Positions 5,473 to 40,958 of a stretch of DNA of 64,000 nt are shown here, in pieces. A program made the position numbers and the translations under genes. Source of the stretch: Alphaproteobacteria bacterium (lineage in GTDB: Bacteria > Pseudomonadota > Alphaproteobacteria > Rs-D84 > CACZYB01); assembly GCA_051885355.1 (NCBI GenBank), contig JBJEXC010000002.1, positions 10,496 through 74,495 of the forward strand, given 5' to 3'. Each line of letters begins with the position of its first letter. Position 1 is the stretch's first letter. A model generated the notes under the pieces. That model had not been told where the DNA came from. It did no database searches and saw only the letters and a program-made list of their open reading frames with translations.

Positions 5473-6132
5473 TTATGCTTCTATTGTTTCAGATAATAAC
5501 CAGTTGGAATTCTTTTTTGCATAATCCCTTGAAAAAACTAAAATATCCTTCATTGTTTCAAGTTGATTATCGTCGCCCTTTATAACTTTGCCAGCCTTAT
5601 CCTTTATAAAAGCACATTGTTCGGTTGTATATTCTATAACAATTTTTGCTAATTTATGTTCAATAATTATATCTGTCATAATTATTTTTTTAAAACGAAC
5701 AATTTCTGTAATTAAAGTTTGTTCCTTCTTTTCAATTTCCTTTATTTGCTCATCAAAAAGGTTATAAATATTTTCTGTGACAAGAGGTTTTAAATTTTTT
5801 CTGTCCTTTAATTCCATATATTTTGTAATTTTTTCAAAAGTTTTTTTTGAATTATCAAGAAAAGTTTCTGGATTAAAATCCTTATCTAATTTAGAAAGTT
5901 CCGCCGTTCTTTCGTTTATATGTTCTTTAAGAAGTTGTTGCATAACTTCGTTCACTATACGTTTATCCTTTAATTCCAATATACTTTTTACAAAATTCTT
6001 TTTAAATTGTTGATTTGCTGCAATATCTGAATTTTTATTATTTTTTGCATTTTCAGGTTTAAGTATTCCGTAAAGTGAAATAACTATTACGATAAAAAGT
6101 CCAATAATTAAAAAATCAAATAAATTTAACAT
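5473..6132 (-). CDS. Tim44-like domain protein (membrane-anchored)
   Basis: N-terminal TM helix plus a C-terminal Tim44-like domain. Adjacent to secB, as is typical in alphaproteobacteria. Confidence 0.55.
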   Translation of the reverse strand: MLNLFDFLIIGLFIVIVISLYGILKPENAKNNKNSDIAANQQFKKNFVKSILELKDKRIVNEVMQQLLKEHINERTAELSKLDKDFNPETFLDNSKKTFEKITKYMELKDRKNLKPLVTENIYNLFDEQIKEIEKKEQTLITEIVRFKKIIMTDIIIEHKLAKIVIEYTTEQCAFIKDKAGKVIKGDDNQLETMKDILVFSRDYAKKNSNWLLSETIEA

Positions 6133-10390: not shown

Positions 10391-11341
10391 ATGTCATATT
10401 TAGAGCATTTTCATTTTGATAAAGAACCTTTTATTGATAACTCTTTTAACTATATTTATGAAAATAAAAAGCAATTTAAGATTATAAATGAAATATCTGA
10501 TTCTATCAGATTTAATTCTGGCATTTACAGTATTATTGGTGGAAATGGGGTTGGTAAAACTTTTGTCTTAAAGCAAATTCAAAAAAATCTTTGTAATAAT
10601 GATATTGTCGTTTTTATACCTTCTTCTGATAAAACTGATATATTGAAGATGATTTCTGAGAAACTTTCTTTACAAACAAAAAAAGGCAATGTTGATGACG
10701 TTTTTCAACTTCTTTCTAAATTTCATAAAAAGGGGCAAAATATTATACTTATAATTGATGATATGCAGGAACTTGATAAATCACAAATCAGAAACCTTAC
10801 CTCTATTATAGAAGTTATTGGATATTTAAAAGTGATTGTAAGTGGTAATAAAAGTTTAAAAAAGATTTTAAAAAATAAAAATTATTCTATTTTAAGGGAG
10901 AAGAAAGTAAAAAGTTATAAACTTTCGCATTTTTCATTTATTTCTGCTATGAGGTATATAGATTCTATATCTGTTAGCGCTTTATCGCTTAGTCAATATA
11001 AAAAGGTTATAGGATTTATGCCAAGGGTTGTTATTTCCTTTATTTCTAACAGAAATATTGACAATATTAATCTTATTACTTTGGAAGCGATAAAAGATGC
11101 GTATCAACAAAAACAAAGCAAAGTGAAACTTAAAAATGTTTATAATGTGGCAAAGAAAAATTTTGATATAGTTATGGAAAATATTTATTTTAAATTTCAG
11201 AAGATTTTTCTTTTTATACTTATAATTTTATCTATTTATTATTGTGTAAGGCTTGTTGCGGACAGGCAATATTTGCTTCAAAAAATTGAAGTGGAAAAAT
11301 CTATTGATGAGCAAGAAAAAAGTTTTGAAAAACTTTATTAG
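10391..11341 (+). CDS. ExeA/GspA-like AAA ATPase with C-terminal TM helix
   Basis: N-terminus YLEHFHFDKEPF…, Walker A GGNGVGKT and Walker B IILIIDD match the ExeA-family layout. There is a hydrophobic segment near the C-terminus. Confidence 0.5.
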   Translation: MSYLEHFHFDKEPFIDNSFNYIYENKKQFKIINEISDSIRFNSGIYSIIGGNGVGKTFVLKQIQKNLCNNDIVVFIPSSDKTDILKMISEKLSLQTKKGNVDDVFQLLSKFHKKGQNIILIIDDMQELDKSQIRNLTSIIEVIGYLKVIVSGNKSLKKILKNKNYSILREKKVKSYKLSHFSFISAMRYIDSISVSALSLSQYKKVIGFMPRVVISFISNRNIDNINLITLEAIKDAYQQKQSKVKLKNVYNVAKKNFDIVMENIYFKFQKIFLFILIILSIYYCVRLVADRQYLLQKIEVEKSIDEQEKSFEKLY

Positions 11342-27560: not shown

Positions 27561-29996
27561 CTATTTAAAATTATCAAGATAGACTTCAACAAATTTGTTT
27601 CCGTGCAATTTTCTTAATTCTTCGGCAAGGAGAACAGCCTTTCTTCCACTGTTGAATAATTGTAGGTATGGACCAAGACCAGATAAATCTATGTTTAATA
27701 TTACAGATTCATCAATAGTTGGTTTGCGGAAAAGGATGGCATATTTTAAATCCTTGTAAATTTTGCCTTGAATAAATGCCATTTCCTTTGGTGTTAGGTT
27801 CCAACTGTCGTAATCTTCTGGTCTTGCCTGAACATTACGGAAGAATATTTGTGTTTGACATTGTCCGCGGATAACCTCACCAATACCTAATTTATCAAGG
27901 ACATTAGGTTGTTGGAATGCAGCAAGGTATGCTTGGCGTTTTTTACGACCTTCCTGTAGACCTATTACAAAATTGTTGCGGAATACTGGGTTTACAAGCA
28001 TAGGTGCAGTTTCATCAATTATGATTAAACTTGGAGCACCAGTTCTGCCAGTTATATTTTGAATGCGGTTCATAATGTAACTGACAACCGCTGGGGCGAG
28101 GGTTTCATCCTCAAAAATATAAGTAAAATCAAAAGTATTGAAGCGATTTGATAAATCCAAACTGTCGGCTTCGCTGTTAAATAAAAGTCCGTATTGATTA
28201 TCATCAACCCAACGGAAAAGTTCCCTTCTCATTTTACCAGCAGGGGAAAAGCAAGATTTGTAAAGGTTTTTAAGACTTCTTTTATTTGGTTCCAAATAAT
28301 CAAAAGAAGTTGTGATTGCGCGGGCTATTTCGGCTTCGCTATTTGCATCATCAACTTGAGTGATTTCTTTTAGCCAACGACGAAGGAAGGCGCGATTTTC
28401 TGGGGTATCATCTATACGGAAAGGGTTAAGGTGTGCGGTTGTGCCACCCTTTACAACATCCTTGTCCTTTGTATCGCCTTCGAAATTTATGTATGAACCG
28501 CCGGCTGCGTAAGTGAAAATTTCTGCGCCACGGTGGCGATCGAAAAAGAATACTCTTAAATCATCGAATCGCAAAGATTGTCCGGCAAGGAAAGAGTAAA
28601 GAGTTGTTTTACCTTGACCAGTTGGACCTATTGCCACTGTATGGGCTACGGCTGCGGGTTCATCGGATACATGAAATTCAAATTGATATGCGGTTCCTTG
28701 ATATGTTGGGAATATAGCAATAGGACCATTTCCCCAGTCGCATTTTGATAAACCCTCCGGTTGGTGTTCAAAATTAAAACTTGTTGCAACTGCGCGGGAT
28801 AGCATTTTATACATTCTTGGGTATTTATCATAGGTTGGGAATTGTGAGAACCAAGAACTTTGTGCAATCCAACCTTCGCGAACTGGTGTTAATCCGTAAA
28901 GTCGGCAAATTTTTTCAATTTCAAATACGGCTTCGTCCAGACCTTTGAAACTGTCGCTTGTGATGAAAAAAGTTTCTGCATAATTAACAAGGGTTTGGTG
29001 ATCTTCGTCATTTTGTTCTATTAATGCAAGGGCATCATCAAATTGGCGTAAAACATCGTAAGAGAAAGTGCTTGAACTTGCCATTCTTCGTTGATTTACC
29101 AAAATCATTTGTGCTTTCATTTTTGGAATAGGGAATAAGTTATGTAAAACTGTTATTTCATAGTTAAGGGCGAGAATATCGGAGAGCATTTGCTCATCAA
29201 CTGTATTTGATTGTTGCTTTATACCGACAACTGCCATATATTTTTCGCGACCTCCGGAACGAAAACGAATATATCCTTTGTTAGAAAAGAATATTTCATC
29301 GGATACCATAAGTTCAGAAATATTATCAAAAACTATGTTTTCAGATTTTGGGTTAGGGCGAGATATAGGGTTTATTATATGGGCGAAAAATGTAAGTGGG
29401 CTTTCGTTTATGCCATCTTCTTTTAAAATTTTTACACCGAAGTTGGAAAGAATTGCTTCTAAGTTACTTGATGCGGTATCTAAATCCTTTAGGGCATCCT
29501 TTCTGTCGTTGACAGATATGACAATGTAATGGGAGTTTTTGAAAATTTCCTTTTGTGCTTCGCTCCATTTTTCAGAAATTTCCTTTAATACTTTGTTATC
29601 GTTGTTTATAACCTTTTCTGTTTTGACCTTTTCACGAATTGTGAAAATACGGCTTTCAATACTTATTTCAGATAAAGAATCAATCCATTTTTTTCTTTCT
29701 TCAAGCAAAGATTGTATTGTTTCACGGCGGGCAAATGCTATGCTTGCACCATGAATTTTGAAAATACGAACTAAACTTCCGTTGGAGCAGAGTATAGTTT
29801 TTTTATCATCCAATAATTTTTCAAATGGAAGGTAGTCAATAAGTCTTGTATCATAAGGGCGTGGAAGAAATAAGTTTGATTTTTTTGATATTATTACAGT
29901 TATTATTATAGCAATGGCAATAATACCCAAAATCAATGATATTGTGTAAGTGTTTGATAAGTTCATAAGTAATATTTTTGATAAGTTAAAATTCAT
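27561..29996 (-). CDS. virB4: type IV secretion system ATPase VirB4
   Basis: 811 aa; Walker A GPTGQGKTT; CagE/TrbE/VirB4 family layout; follows virB3. Confidence 0.9.
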   Translation of the reverse strand: MNFNLSKILLMNLSNTYTISLILGIIAIAIIITVIISKKSNLFLPRPYDTRLIDYLPFEKLLDDKKTILCSNGSLVRIFKIHGASIAFARRETIQSLLEERKKWIDSLSEISIESRIFTIREKVKTEKVINNDNKVLKEISEKWSEAQKEIFKNSHYIVISVNDRKDALKDLDTASSNLEAILSNFGVKILKEDGINESPLTFFAHIINPISRPNPKSENIVFDNISELMVSDEIFFSNKGYIRFRSGGREKYMAVVGIKQQSNTVDEQMLSDILALNYEITVLHNLFPIPKMKAQMILVNQRRMASSSTFSYDVLRQFDDALALIEQNDEDHQTLVNYAETFFITSDSFKGLDEAVFEIEKICRLYGLTPVREGWIAQSSWFSQFPTYDKYPRMYKMLSRAVATSFNFEHQPEGLSKCDWGNGPIAIFPTYQGTAYQFEFHVSDEPAAVAHTVAIGPTGQGKTTLYSFLAGQSLRFDDLRVFFFDRHRGAEIFTYAAGGSYINFEGDTKDKDVVKGGTTAHLNPFRIDDTPENRAFLRRWLKEITQVDDANSEAEIARAITTSFDYLEPNKRSLKNLYKSCFSPAGKMRRELFRWVDDNQYGLLFNSEADSLDLSNRFNTFDFTYIFEDETLAPAVVSYIMNRIQNITGRTGAPSLIIIDETAPMLVNPVFRNNFVIGLQEGRKKRQAYLAAFQQPNVLDKLGIGEVIRGQCQTQIFFRNVQARPEDYDSWNLTPKEMAFIQGKIYKDLKYAILFRKPTIDESVILNIDLSGLGPYLQLFNSGRKAVLLAEELRKLHGNKFVEVYLDNFK

Positions 29997-37420: not shown

Positions 37421-37483
37421 TATTGTAAAAAAGGTTTAAATAGTGTATTATTAAAGTAATATTTTATAACAAAAGGAAACAAA

Positions 37484-39910
37484 ATGTTAAAATTATTTGC
37501 TGAAAAATTTGGTATGGGGGGGGGTAAAAACCCTGTAAAATCAAATAGTTACAAAAACTTTGCAATCTGTCTTTGTTTAATATTTTTTATATCTCTAACT
37601 ATATTTGCTTTGTCTGGTTCTGTGAATGCGGCAAGAAATGTTAGAGGTAACAGAAATGGTGGTGTTAAAAAAACAAGTGGGGCAAAGAAAGCAGGTAATG
37701 TTAATAAATCTAATAGTAGTTCAAATAAATCTATACCTGTAAATGCTAATAGGAAGGCTAGAGCGGCTGTTACTAATAAAAGGTCTGCGACTTCAGGTAA
37801 TGCAAAAAGGGCTGGCGTTTCTGGAAATGTTAGAAAGGCTAGAGTGGTTTCTGCTAGAAAGACTGTTAATAATAGGGCGTTAAGAGGAAAAATAAAAGCC
37901 GAAGAGGAAGCAAGTTTGGAAGAGACAGAAACTTTATCCTCAGAAGTAGTAAATAAGATGTCTGAACATGATAGAAAATTTAAAAAATTAGCTGAGTTGA
38001 AAGGTTTGGCAAACGACTGTCCTGTTGAAAAGGCTCTTGGTAGAAAAATTGATGAAGATGGTGATGAATTTTTCTATACAGGAAAAGAACCTTTTAATGG
38101 AGAAAATTTTTGTGATGAAAGACTTATATTATCTAATCAAATTGCTGATTTATATAAATGGAAAGAAAGTGACAAAGAAAAATATCCTAGGGGTAGTTTG
38201 GATGATAGTGATGAAATTTTTTATTTTAAATGTAAGGAAGGTTATGTTGCTAAAAATAACAGTGATGGTATAAGGACTTGTGTATCAGTTTGTCCTTTGA
38301 ATGTTGCTTTGGAAAAAAGTGCAAGTTATGAAGATAAATATATTTCTCCAACAAATGGTTTGATTTGTTCTGTTCCAGCAAATTCAAAAGCAAGACTTGT
38401 CAAAGATGGTGAAAATACAAGAAGTGATTTGGATGATGAAAATGCTTATATAGTAGAATGTAATGCAAATAAATATTCTGCTGTGTTAGATGGTTCTGAT
38501 TCGGAAGTGCATTATCAATGTTTGACTTGTCCAAGTGGGTATGTGTCCTCTGCTGGTGCAAAATCTGTTGCTGAATGTAAGGAAGAATGTAAAGGGGATA
38601 AGATTAAACTTGATGATGGAAGTTGTGTTGCTTGTGATGCGAATGCTTCTGTATCGGGTAATTCCTGTATCTGTAAAGATGGTTATTATGGTAAGGGATA
38701 TGGAACTGATGGATGTGTGACTTGTCCTTCTGGATATGTATGTTCTGGTGGTGAAAAGAAATCCAAATATGTAAGTGAACAGGCGGAAGAAACATCATCC
38801 AATGAACAACAATCTTGTCCAGAGGGTTCAAAACCTTCCTCTGATGGCACAACTTGTGTTTGTGATGATAGTAATTATACTTTTGATTCAAAATCCAATA
38901 GTTGTGTGGAAAAAGTTTGTGGTTCAAATGAAGTTAAAATGTCAGATGGAACTTGTAAAGCAATATCTAGTTTGGTTGCATCTGAATTTAACAGAGTTGC
39001 CACAGGAAAATCTGGTAATTCCAATTGTCCAACTGGTGATTTGGAGGCTGGTGTCTACTTAGTTACACTTAAAGGTGGTAATGGTGGAAACAGCGGTAGT
39101 AGTGGAAAAAATAAGGCTGGTCAAACAGAGAAAGATGTTTCCGGTGGAAAGGGTGCAAAATTGCAATATGTATTTAAGTTGAGTAAAAATGCAACTTTTG
39201 AAATTTGTGCCGGTGAAAATGGTAAATTGCCTGCTGATACAGATTCTCCAAATGAAGGAGGCGGTGGCGGTGGTGGATCATGGCTTAACATTAATTCACC
39301 TGAATTTTCTGGCGATGTCTACTTTGTTGCCGGTGGTGGTGGCGGTGCATCCGCAGACTATGCTGGTCAAGACGGCGGTGGCGGCGGTGGCGGCGGCGGT
39401 ATTGGTGCCGGTGGTGCTGCTGGTGAAGGTAAAGGTTATAGTTATGGTGGTTACGGTGGTATGAGTGGAAAATACCCTGGTGGAGTATACAAGCAATATA
39501 ATGATAATAATAAAAGTGGTGTAACAAAACTTTACGGTTACATACCTGATATTGCGAAGGGTTTAAATGACAGTAATCCGCTTTTGATGGGTGATTCTGG
39601 TAGAAGCGGTGGTGGTGCCGGTGGTGGAAATGGTGGTGACGGTGGTGACGGTCAAGAATGGTTTGGTAACGCTAATTGTGCAAAGGGTGCTGTTGCAAAT
39701 ATAGATACTATAAACATTATTGACTTTGACGGTAAAGTTACAAAGCAAAGCCAACAATACGGTGGTAAAGGTGGTGTTGCTTGTCAAGCCTCTCACCATA
39801 GAGCCGGATATGATGGTGAAAGTTCACATATTTCGAATATAAACCTTTCGAATTTATGTGGTGGAAGCAATAAGGCTGATGCCTGTGCTGAACTTTACAA
39901 GTTAAAATAA
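37484..39910 (+). CDS. large secreted/anchored protein: basic low-complexity region, Cys-rich ephrin-receptor/TNFR-like repeats, C-terminal polyglycine-rich (ALK/LTK GlyR-like) domain
   Basis: 808 aa. TM/signal segment at aa 26-48, then a K/R/N-rich stretch. More than 40 Cys in CxxCPSGY-type repeats, for example TCVTCPSGYVCSGG. The C-terminus has G6-G10 runs spaced by short beta-like strands (YVFKLSKNATFEICAGENGK / EGGGGGGGSW / VYFVAGGGGGAS / GGGGGGGGGIGAGG). Confidence 0.6.
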   Translation: MLKLFAEKFGMGGGKNPVKSNSYKNFAICLCLIFFISLTIFALSGSVNAARNVRGNRNGGVKKTSGAKKAGNVNKSNSSSNKSIPVNANRKARAAVTNKRSATSGNAKRAGVSGNVRKARVVSARKTVNNRALRGKIKAEEEASLEETETLSSEVVNKMSEHDRKFKKLAELKGLANDCPVEKALGRKIDEDGDEFFYTGKEPFNGENFCDERLILSNQIADLYKWKESDKEKYPRGSLDDSDEIFYFKCKEGYVAKNNSDGIRTCVSVCPLNVALEKSASYEDKYISPTNGLICSVPANSKARLVKDGENTRSDLDDENAYIVECNANKYSAVLDGSDSEVHYQCLTCPSGYVSSAGAKSVAECKEECKGDKIKLDDGSCVACDANASVSGNSCICKDGYYGKGYGTDGCVTCPSGYVCSGGEKKSKYVSEQAEETSSNEQQSCPEGSKPSSDGTTCVCDDSNYTFDSKSNSCVEKVCGSNEVKMSDGTCKAISSLVASEFNRVATGKSGNSNCPTGDLEAGVYLVTLKGGNGGNSGSSGKNKAGQTEKDVSGGKGAKLQYVFKLSKNATFEICAGENGKLPADTDSPNEGGGGGGGSWLNINSPEFSGDVYFVAGGGGGASADYAGQDGGGGGGGGGIGAGGAAGEGKGYSYGGYGGMSGKYPGGVYKQYNDNNKSGVTKLYGYIPDIAKGLNDSNPLLMGDSGRSGGGAGGGNGGDGGDGQEWFGNANCAKGAVANIDTINIIDFDGKVTKQSQQYGGKGGVACQASHHRAGYDGESSHISNINLSNLCGGSNKADACAELYKLK
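37516..37524 (+). repeat. G9 homopolymeric tract in the 5' coding region
   Basis: atGGGGGGGGGt encodes MGGGK; nine consecutive G in an ~30% GC genome. Confidence 0.8.
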
Positions 39911-39960: not shown

Positions 39961-40342
39961 ATAGTCCCCAAGCGTTTTCAATGTATTCGTGATTGAAAAA
40001 GTCGTCAAAAAGTATTGCATCGAATCGGCAATCAAAGTTTTCAAATTCCTTATGATTGCTTAGGAAAAATTCGGCGGAGGAATAAATTCTTTTCATTTGG
40101 GTTGTGCCAATTGATTCGCCCGCAAGGGATAAGGTTTTTCGTTTTTTTACCTCTATGAAAAGTAATAATTTTTTCTGTTTGTTTATGGCGATTATATCAA
40201 TTTCGCCGGCTTCAAGTCCATGGCCTACCTGATATCGGGAAGTGAAAATAGAAAAGCCCATATTTTGCAAAATTTCTTTTGCTTTGTTTTCTGCTTCTAT
40301 CCCTATGGAGTAGTTAGTTCTTTTTTGAATTTGATGTTGCAA
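39959..40342 (-). CDS. yraN: YraN (UPF0102) family endonuclease
   Basis: 127 aa; GEIDIIA…IEVKKR PD-(D/E)XK-like pattern typical of YraN. Confidence 0.7.
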   Translation of the reverse strand: MQHQIQKRTNYSIGIEAENKAKEILQNMGFSIFTSRYQVGHGLEAGEIDIIAINKQKKLLLFIEVKKRKTLSLAGESIGTTQMKRIYSSAEFFLSNHKEFENFDCRFDAILFDDFFNHEYIENAWGL

Positions 40343-40958
40343 CCATAGCCTCGCGTATTACTTTGTCGCCTAATTTATATCCTGCTTGAAGTTCGCGTGC
40401 GATGGTGCCCTCCGCTACATTTGGGTCATCGACTTGCATTACTACGCAATGTTGGGCTGGATTAAGTGGTTCGCCAACGGTAGGGATTTTACAGATACCG
40501 TTTTTTTCAAGGGCGGAAATGAAACTGTCTTTTATAGATTTAAGTCCATTGAAGATATTTTCATCCACTTTACCCTCCATTGATGTGAGGGCTAGAGCAA
40601 GGTTATCAGCAAGAGGCAACATATCCTTTGCAAATTTAGAAATTTTGTAATCAACCATATTTTTTGCATCTATTTCGGCTCTGCGTTTAGCGTTTTCGCA
40701 ATCTGCCATTGTGCGGAGGTATCTTTCCTGCCATGAGGAAATTTCTGCCTTTAGATTTTCGATTTTATCGTTTTCGGCTTCACAACCTTCTGGTGCGCAT
40801 TTTACACCTTCGCCACAATCTGCGTTGACTTTGTGATGTTCGCATTCACAATTATGGCAGTGGCATTCTTTATTTTCATTACAGGCGCATTCACAAGTAT
40901 GTTCAGTTTGTTTATTATCCATATTATCGTTGTGTTTGTTTTTGAATTTTTTACTCAT
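40314..40958 (-). CDS. grpE: nucleotide exchange factor GrpE with Cys/His-rich N-terminal extension
   Basis: The GrpE core starts at about aa 65 (…LRTMADCENAKRRAE…). The N-terminal 60 aa contain about 10 Cys and 5 His (TEHTCECACNENKECHCHNCECEHH…CGEGVKCAPEGCE). Confidence 0.85.
   Translation of the reverse strand: MSKKFKNKHNDNMDNKQTEHTCECACNENKECHCHNCECEHHKVNADCGEGVKCAPEGCEAENDKIENLKAEISSWQERYLRTMADCENAKRRAEIDAKNMVDYKISKFAKDMLPLADNLALALTSMEGKVDENIFNGLKSIKDSFISALEKNGICKIPTVGEPLNPAQHCVVMQVDDPNVAEGTIARELQAGYKLGDKVIREAMVATSNSKKN

Follow-up and report, generated by a model that had tools for sequence, protein, structure and literature searches.

Simple-repeat phase variation is well studied in only a few pathogens, for example Campylobacter, Neisseria, Haemophilus and Helicobacter, and the locus described here raises the question whether a switch of this kind also operates in an uncultured alphaproteobacterium. 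The window, i.e., the whole stretch of DNA that was analyzed, comprises 64,000 nucleotides (positions 10,496 to 74,495) of contig JBJEXC010000002.1 in assembly GCA_051885355.1 from an 'Alphaproteobacteria bacterium' and contains a gene for a protein of 808 amino acids that carries nine consecutive G residues (G9) close to its 5' end. An earlier note on this DNA had proposed the tract as a candidate phase-variation switch. This proposal is supported by length polymorphism within identical flanks of orthologs and paralogs and by the consequences for the reading frame. Because DNA from other samples that is identical in all else has one G more or fewer in the tract, we consider it likely, with a probability of roughly 85%, that G9 serves as a simple-sequence contingency switch at the level of translation.

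The letters and the translation confirm that nine G residues are situated on the plus strand in the N-terminal coding region, where they fill the last position of codon 11, all of codons 12 and 13 and the first two positions of codon 14 (Table 1). The context ATG GGG GGG GGT encodes M-G-G-G, and the protein reads F-G-M-G-G-G-K. When tracts of G6 to G12 were translated in silico, the full protein of 807-809 amino acids was obtained at G6, G9 and G12, while G7 and G10 gave 13-14 amino acids with the stop codon TAA directly after the tract, and G8 and G11 gave 17-18 amino acids with a stop four codons further on. The window allele is ON, and the statement that a change of one G shifts the frame holds true, translation then stopping after 13-18 codons. 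No start codon is present between the tract and the hydrophobic core of the signal peptide in the window gene, so that the tract lies inside the translated region whichever ATG is used. Other-frame starts 5' of the tract are limited to two TTG codons that lack a ribosome-binding site, and every family member has an AGGAAA or AAGGAG site ahead of its leader ATG. The ATG at 37514-37516 does abut the tract, as the earlier note had pointed out; its suggested role as an alternative start was not upheld, since it shares its frame with the ATG at 37484 and specifies Met11. It was rejected as an other-frame start also in view of the relatives, which have CTT, CTA or CAA-TGG in this place. Directly 3' of the stop codon lies a terminator-like hairpin, and the gene beyond it is convergent; the OFF state should therefore affect this gene only, without a polar effect.

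For a comparison of tracts, the contigs of close homologs and of the proteins that cluster with them at 90% were located, all comparative sequences being consensus contigs of metagenome assemblies. The earlier note had recommended examining orthologous loci in relatives, and length heterogeneity was indeed found at exactly this tract. The syntenic ortholog, likewise encoded 3' of an SH3-domain gene, has G9 in frame in one contig (L002) versus G10 out of frame in another (L003), and a second pair shows G9 (L007) versus G8 (L004); in both pairs the flanks, 2.8 kb on the upstream and 4.8 kb on the downstream side, match at 100% identity (about 7.7 kb each). A more distant syntenic ortholog, encoded on contigs named Hadza, has G9 in L043 and L044 and G8 in L046, with 10 kb of identical flanks between L043 and L046. 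An exact copy of its G9 protein occurs on at least 37 contigs. In all three pairs of independent assemblies (G9/G10, G9/G8 and G9/G8), a single G in the tract is the sole difference.

Such differences could in principle have arisen during sequencing or assembly, from a difficult homopolymer that is stable in vivo, given that homopolymers are error-prone and that the comparative data stem throughout from short-read consensus contigs with MEGAHIT- or SPAdes-style record names. However, the flanks of the same three pairs contain 14-23 A/T runs of 7-10 bases, all of which are unchanged over 7.7-10 kb, and this argues against a general homopolymer error. Furthermore, variation at the same tract recurs in three lineages and in paralogs and goes in both directions, a frame-preserving +3 variant (G11) exists, and in the species with the Hadza contigs G8 is accompanied by a second ATG that restores the frame. 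We regard an origin of the length differences in faulty reads or assemblies as very improbable.

The paralog that adjoins an acyltransferase gene was encountered with G9 (L001, OFF), G8 (L005, ON) and G11 (L006, ON). G9 was the commonest length among the tracts examined, and the variants mostly deviate by one base in either direction, with one at G11. OFF alleles are followed by uninterrupted open reading frames of 608-635 amino acids; over the wider set of family members, the frames that stay open in OFF alleles span 285-635 amino acids, which is compatible with reversibility. Gene callers start the OFF alleles at an internal Met, which explains why products of 558 or 564 amino acids appear in the clusters beside members of 620 or 645 amino acids.

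Two further observations concern paralog copies on L006. One copy (L006 851-861) has an interrupted tract, GTG GGGGGG A GGG, which is out of frame and would be in frame at G8; such an allele may be locked OFF or less prone to mutation. The paralog allele P0011 (L006 3001-4932) is a mosaic when compared with P0007 (L005) and with the syntenic gene P0003 (L002): in alignment columns 331-450 it agrees with the syntenic gene at 116 of the 118 compared positions, whereas outside these columns it is nearly identical to the paralog. This pattern suggests gene conversion or recombination between family members.

What is shared by the family is a leader cassette that consists, in this order, of a ribosome-binding site, ATG, 5-13 codons, G(8-11), TAAA, 6-7 nucleotides and GTAAA(A), followed by the signal peptide, and that encodes [GG(G)][K/VN/VK]xx-V-K-S-x-S-Y. 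The DNA element G(n) plus TAAA is kept in at least 15 genes and is read in three registers (GGT AAA, GTA AAT, GTA AAA), while the leaders diverge; because the registers differ between genes, some copies are ON at G9 while others are OFF. In more distant homologs the tract is absent and the signal peptide is of the ordinary MKK type, and for this reason the cassette looks like a lineage-specific addition. In species-representative genomes, a pattern scan revealed several genes per genome with the cassette, G(n)TAAA...GTAAAANCAA. The metagenome-assembled genome (MAG) Mgla_MAG_30-bin_7 has four (one on L010, two on L011, one on L012), Mgla_MAG_18-bin_5 has one (L013), and CAZHAL01 has three in tandem on one contig (L009) and a fourth on another (L045). 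When the frame was anchored on the ATG preceded by a ribosome-binding site, one of the four copies was ON in each of the two four-copy MAGs; the three tandem genes on L009 comprise one ON and two OFF copies.

Several observations were made alongside these scans. CAZHAL01 (GCA_964530355.1), with four family genes and 37-41% guanine-plus-cytosine (GC), is titled 'uncultured Bacteroidales bacterium', and its label or binning may be wrong. The 8-kb contig L009 with the three poly-G family genes also bears, outside any leader cassette, a G12 run at 6113-6124 with GC-rich inverted arms (gaccggcgaccccca-G12-ctcgggggtcgc). A search for the cassette pattern in JGI metagenome contigs gave 28 loci, none of them from the family of the window gene; most represent an unrelated, recurrent G7-9 element in contigs of 38-46% GC. 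This element, GTTGTTATCTCCTAT-ATG-G(7/8/9)-TAAAACCTTGTAAATTCAAGG, is found on L014-L039 (JGI/ENA contigs, e.g., L017 9932-9960 and L038 10038-10067), one of the contigs being titled human oral metagenome. Its G tract varies in length between contigs, and some other taxon may thus have a phase-variable site of its own here. When 13 N-termini of the family were combined into a profile, no significant match emerged among 5.8 billion proteins, the query being too short for a database of that size.

The leader on the Hadza contigs (L043/L046 4001-4040) has a particular design. Two ATGs lie 8 nucleotides apart in different frames, and both G9 (MFKCSTNSQWGGVK...) and G8 (MFDKFAMGGVK...) yield full-length proteins that differ at their N-termini. 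This arrangement bears on the idea that slippage of RNA polymerase or ribosomal frameshifting restores the frame, so that the tract would tune the level of expression instead of acting as a switch. In some endosymbionts with AT-rich genomes, transcriptional slippage does rescue genes that are frameshifted at long homopolymers; it is, however, best documented at A/T runs, and in the window gene translation in the +1 frame runs straight into the TAA that follows the tract. Moreover, if slippage compensated, the leader on the Hadza contigs would have no need of its second ATG in the G8 frame. Among the alternatives weighed here, we rate this compensation as the least probable.

Composition and codon usage speak to the question from another side. 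The G9 tract is the only run of more than six G or C residues across the window, which has a GC content of 32.3%, and 0.013 runs of G9 or C9 would be expected under a model of independent bases. Shuffles that preserve dinucleotides raise this expectation to 0.15. Taken alone, the occurrence of G9 in the window is only suggestive of a switch, and codon usage provides stronger evidence. Only 5 of the 121 glycine codons of the window gene are GGG, and two of these five are located inside the tract. The C-terminal poly-glycine runs of 7, 5 and 9 residues use GGT, GGC and GGA, with no G run longer than four, and GGG is used for consecutive glycines solely at the tract. With GGG so rare and poly-glycine encoded without long G runs, the G9 tract is not a by-product of glycine coding.

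The same data help to judge the proposition that the tract is a conserved, non-regulatory Gly-Gly-Gly coding feature of the n-region of the signal peptide and that the out-of-frame alleles are decaying pseudogenes. It is true that G-G is invariant in the family alignment and that many paralogs are out of frame within single MAGs. Yet the encoded residues vary (GGGK, GGVN, GGVK) while the G(n)TAAA DNA stays, the rare codon GGG serves consecutive glycines at the tract only, and the OFF alleles, free of further lesions over as many as 635 codons, share identical flanks with ON alleles. A conserved coding motif with pseudogene decay is very improbable, slightly more so than assembly error. Two other roles for the tract were rejected: a single G9 run cannot form an intramolecular G-quadruplex, and an RNA element is not indicated, the Rfam matches in the window being tRNAs only.

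Taken together, the locus has the hallmarks of a simple-sequence contingency switch: contingency loci are characterized by a G/C homopolymer of at least 7-8 bases that follows the start codon within the 5' part of the gene (here G9 at codons 11-14), by in-frame lengths that recur every three bases while others lead to early stops, by length polymorphism between near-identical genomes, which was seen here for orthologs as well as paralogs, and by OFF alleles that are otherwise intact, and all of this applies here. Some points weigh against this conclusion. Within the window alone, G9 is not very improbable under the dinucleotide model, at least one G9 or C9 run having appeared in 10 of 100 shuffles. 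The window strain was seen only as G9, in the window itself and in a Logan assembly (L008, run SRR30616845) that is identical to it over 6 kb and probably represents the same data. Differences between consensus assemblies show polymorphism and neither rate nor reversibility.

In the mechanism that we propose, slipped-strand mispairing during replication would add or remove a G at high frequency. As the tract is placed between the start codon with its good ribosome-binding site and the core of the signal peptide, its length would set the reading frame, and the frame would decide whether the signal peptide and the remaining protein are made. Slippage as the cause of the length changes, its high rate and the reversibility of the OFF state are what we infer from these features. 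Since the copies of the family join the same cassette to binding-type domains that vary and are rich in Cys or Gly, each cell lineage could express a different subset.

The product is identical to the protein predicted for the MAG of the 'Alphaproteobacteria bacterium' (Table 1) and comprises, in this order, a predicted signal peptide, a basic K/R-rich region, Cys-rich repeats and a Gly-rich C-terminal domain. The Kyte-Doolittle profile has a single hydrophobic segment in all 808 residues, F26-L43, which is preceded by K15, K19 and K24 and followed by V-N-A|A. This heuristic reading, made without a dedicated signal-peptide predictor, is consistent with a Sec signal peptide. The earlier note had spoken of a secreted surface protein. 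The Sec-type signal peptide stands on these heuristic grounds and a binding-domain-like fold is supported; the 'surface' part found no support. The C-terminal domain resembles the glycine-rich domain of ALK/LTK and phage glycine-rich fibre tips in Foldseek comparisons, with low TM-scores of 0.3-0.4. No Pfam match was obtained for the window protein, either whole or in halves, even at E <= 1, and this includes Gly_rich_2 (PF21722), so that the protein differs in this respect from the ALK/LTK TG and phage fibre/tail-tip domains of that entry. The ortholog P0003 does match Gly_rich_2 (E 4e-8, 34 bits versus a cutoff of 24.3 bits), and relatives carry Ephrin_rec_like, NCD3G and TNFR-like Cys-rich repeats. 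A sequence search of the PDB matched the Cys-rich repeats only, to ephrin-receptor-like, ELAPOR1 and thyroglobulin entries. The domains of the relatives suggest that the product may function as an adhesin or in ligand binding.

Table 1. Features of the poly-G gene, in coordinates of the 64,000-nucleotide window.
Feature	Position	Strand	Basis or remark
Putative phase-variable gene, 808 amino acids	37484..39910	+	NCBI MAG protein ACI4N3_00675, annotated as hypothetical
Promoter-like element TTGTAA-17-TATTAT (weak evidence)	37423..37451	+	Consensus scan; directly upstream of the gene
Shine-Dalgarno-like AAGGAAA	37473..37479	+	GGA ends 6 nucleotides 5' of the ATG at 37484
Leader, start codon and codons 1-11 (MLKLFAEKFGM)	37484..37515	+	Family alignment
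G9 homopolymer, proposed slipped-strand switch, in frame (ON)	37516..37524	+	Equivalents in orthologs and paralogs vary from G8 to G11
Invariant TAAA 3' of the tract	37525..37528	+	GGT AAA when ON; stop GGG TAA at G7/G10
Conserved V-K-S-x-S-Y, residues 18-23, between tract and hydrophobic core	37535..37552	+	Family alignment
Predicted signal-peptide core F26-L43 and V-N-A (residues 47-49)	37559..37630	+	Predicted cleavage after A49
C-terminal glycine-rich domain, residues 480-808	38921..39907	+	ALK/LTK glycine-rich-domain-like, phage-fibre-tip-like fold
Terminator-like hairpin with an adjoining T run, immediately 3' of the stop codon	39931..39957	+

The gene resides among ordinary chromosomal genes, with trigger factor, an SH3-domain protein, UPF0102 and GrpE adjoining; IleRS, IF-2, NusA, UvrD and GidA are encoded elsewhere in the window. 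The GrpE gene (40314-40958, minus strand) specifies a GrpE domain (residues 60-209) that is preceded by an N-terminal extension rich in Cys and His (…HTCECACNENKECHCHNCECEHHKVNADCGEGVKCAPEGCE…); this extension is metal-binding in appearance and unusual for GrpE. A protein of 811 amino acids (27561-29996, minus strand) matches the CagE/TrbE/VirB4 domain of type IV secretion ATPases, and this region may thus encode a system for type IV secretion or conjugation.

How does this locus compare with known systems? It has no sequence in common with any of the four discussed here, and the likeness lies in arrangement and logic. Campylobacter jejuni NCTC11168 has about 29 phase-variable poly-G/C loci (PMC3401435, PMC4965091), with a modal tract length of nine (PMC3401435). 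The C. jejuni loci resemble ours in the low GC content of the genome (32% here), intragenic G tracts, nine as the commonest length and ON/OFF switching by frameshift. Multiple loci per genome, surface-related functions and a gut-associated organism are further common traits. In contrast to C. jejuni, the organism here is an uncultured alphaproteobacterial MAG from another phylum, and the tract belongs to one conserved N-terminal leader cassette of a paralogous family, whereas in C. jejuni tracts occupy assorted positions in unrelated genes.

The repeats of the Neisseria genes pilC and opa reportedly lie in the signal-peptide coding region, as work by Jonsson in 1991 and Stern in 1986 is said to have described. 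They consist of poly-G (9-20) in pilC and of CTTCT repeats in the multi-copy opa family (PMC5953494). In these genes as well as in ours, an N-terminal repeat is involved, and production of a secreted or outer-membrane protein depends on the frame. The opa genes further resemble our family as a multi-copy family with independent switching and recombination between copies (the mosaic P0011 here), and they differ from it in having a pentamer instead of a homopolymer. There is no sequence relationship to pilC or opa, and the products here are Cys-rich/Gly-rich multidomain proteins, not beta-barrels or PilY1-like proteins. In lic1 of Haemophilus influenzae, CAAT repeats are combined with start codons in more than one frame. 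The leader on the Hadza contigs, with its two ATGs and two full-length tract states, is similar, in contrast to the window gene, which offers only TTG codons in place of a second other-frame ATG. A G-tract switch has also been described for the sortase-dependent pilus of Bifidobacterium breve (PMC9187656), and by analogy our locus may share with it replication slippage at an intragenic G tract in a gut commensal and a surface or adhesion structure as the target. There, the target is the pilus operon of a Gram-positive bacterium, and here it is single secreted proteins of a Gram-negative lineage.

The mechanism is a textbook one, and the understanding of phase variation itself is unchanged by our analysis. 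The gene family has not been described previously, and no description of phase variation was found in the literature for this lineage or protein family. Of interest are the comparative evidence from public assemblies and a cassette common to a family with an ALK-/phage-fibre-like domain. The same switch logic would thereby extend to uncultured gut alphaproteobacteria and to an unannotated family of secreted proteins with a predicted receptor-binding-type fold. Carrying this a step further, we lean, by a small degree, towards the picture that uncultured low-GC gut Alphaproteobacteria, represented by the Hadza-named contigs and by other MAGs and assemblies, run a Campylobacter-like set of poly-G genes on one portable leader cassette. 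The secreted proteins fused to the cassette would exchange binding domains of eukaryote- or phage-like type (ephrin-receptor-like Cys repeats and the ALK-type glycine-rich domain), and different registers, two-start leaders with two ON frames and recombination mosaics would together create a combinatorial system of adhesin or antigen variation. On the practical side, the annotation of OFF alleles as N-terminally truncated proteins amounts to a systematic misreading in MAG catalogues, and tract lengths in metagenomic reads could provide a culture-free readout of host selection on these proteins.

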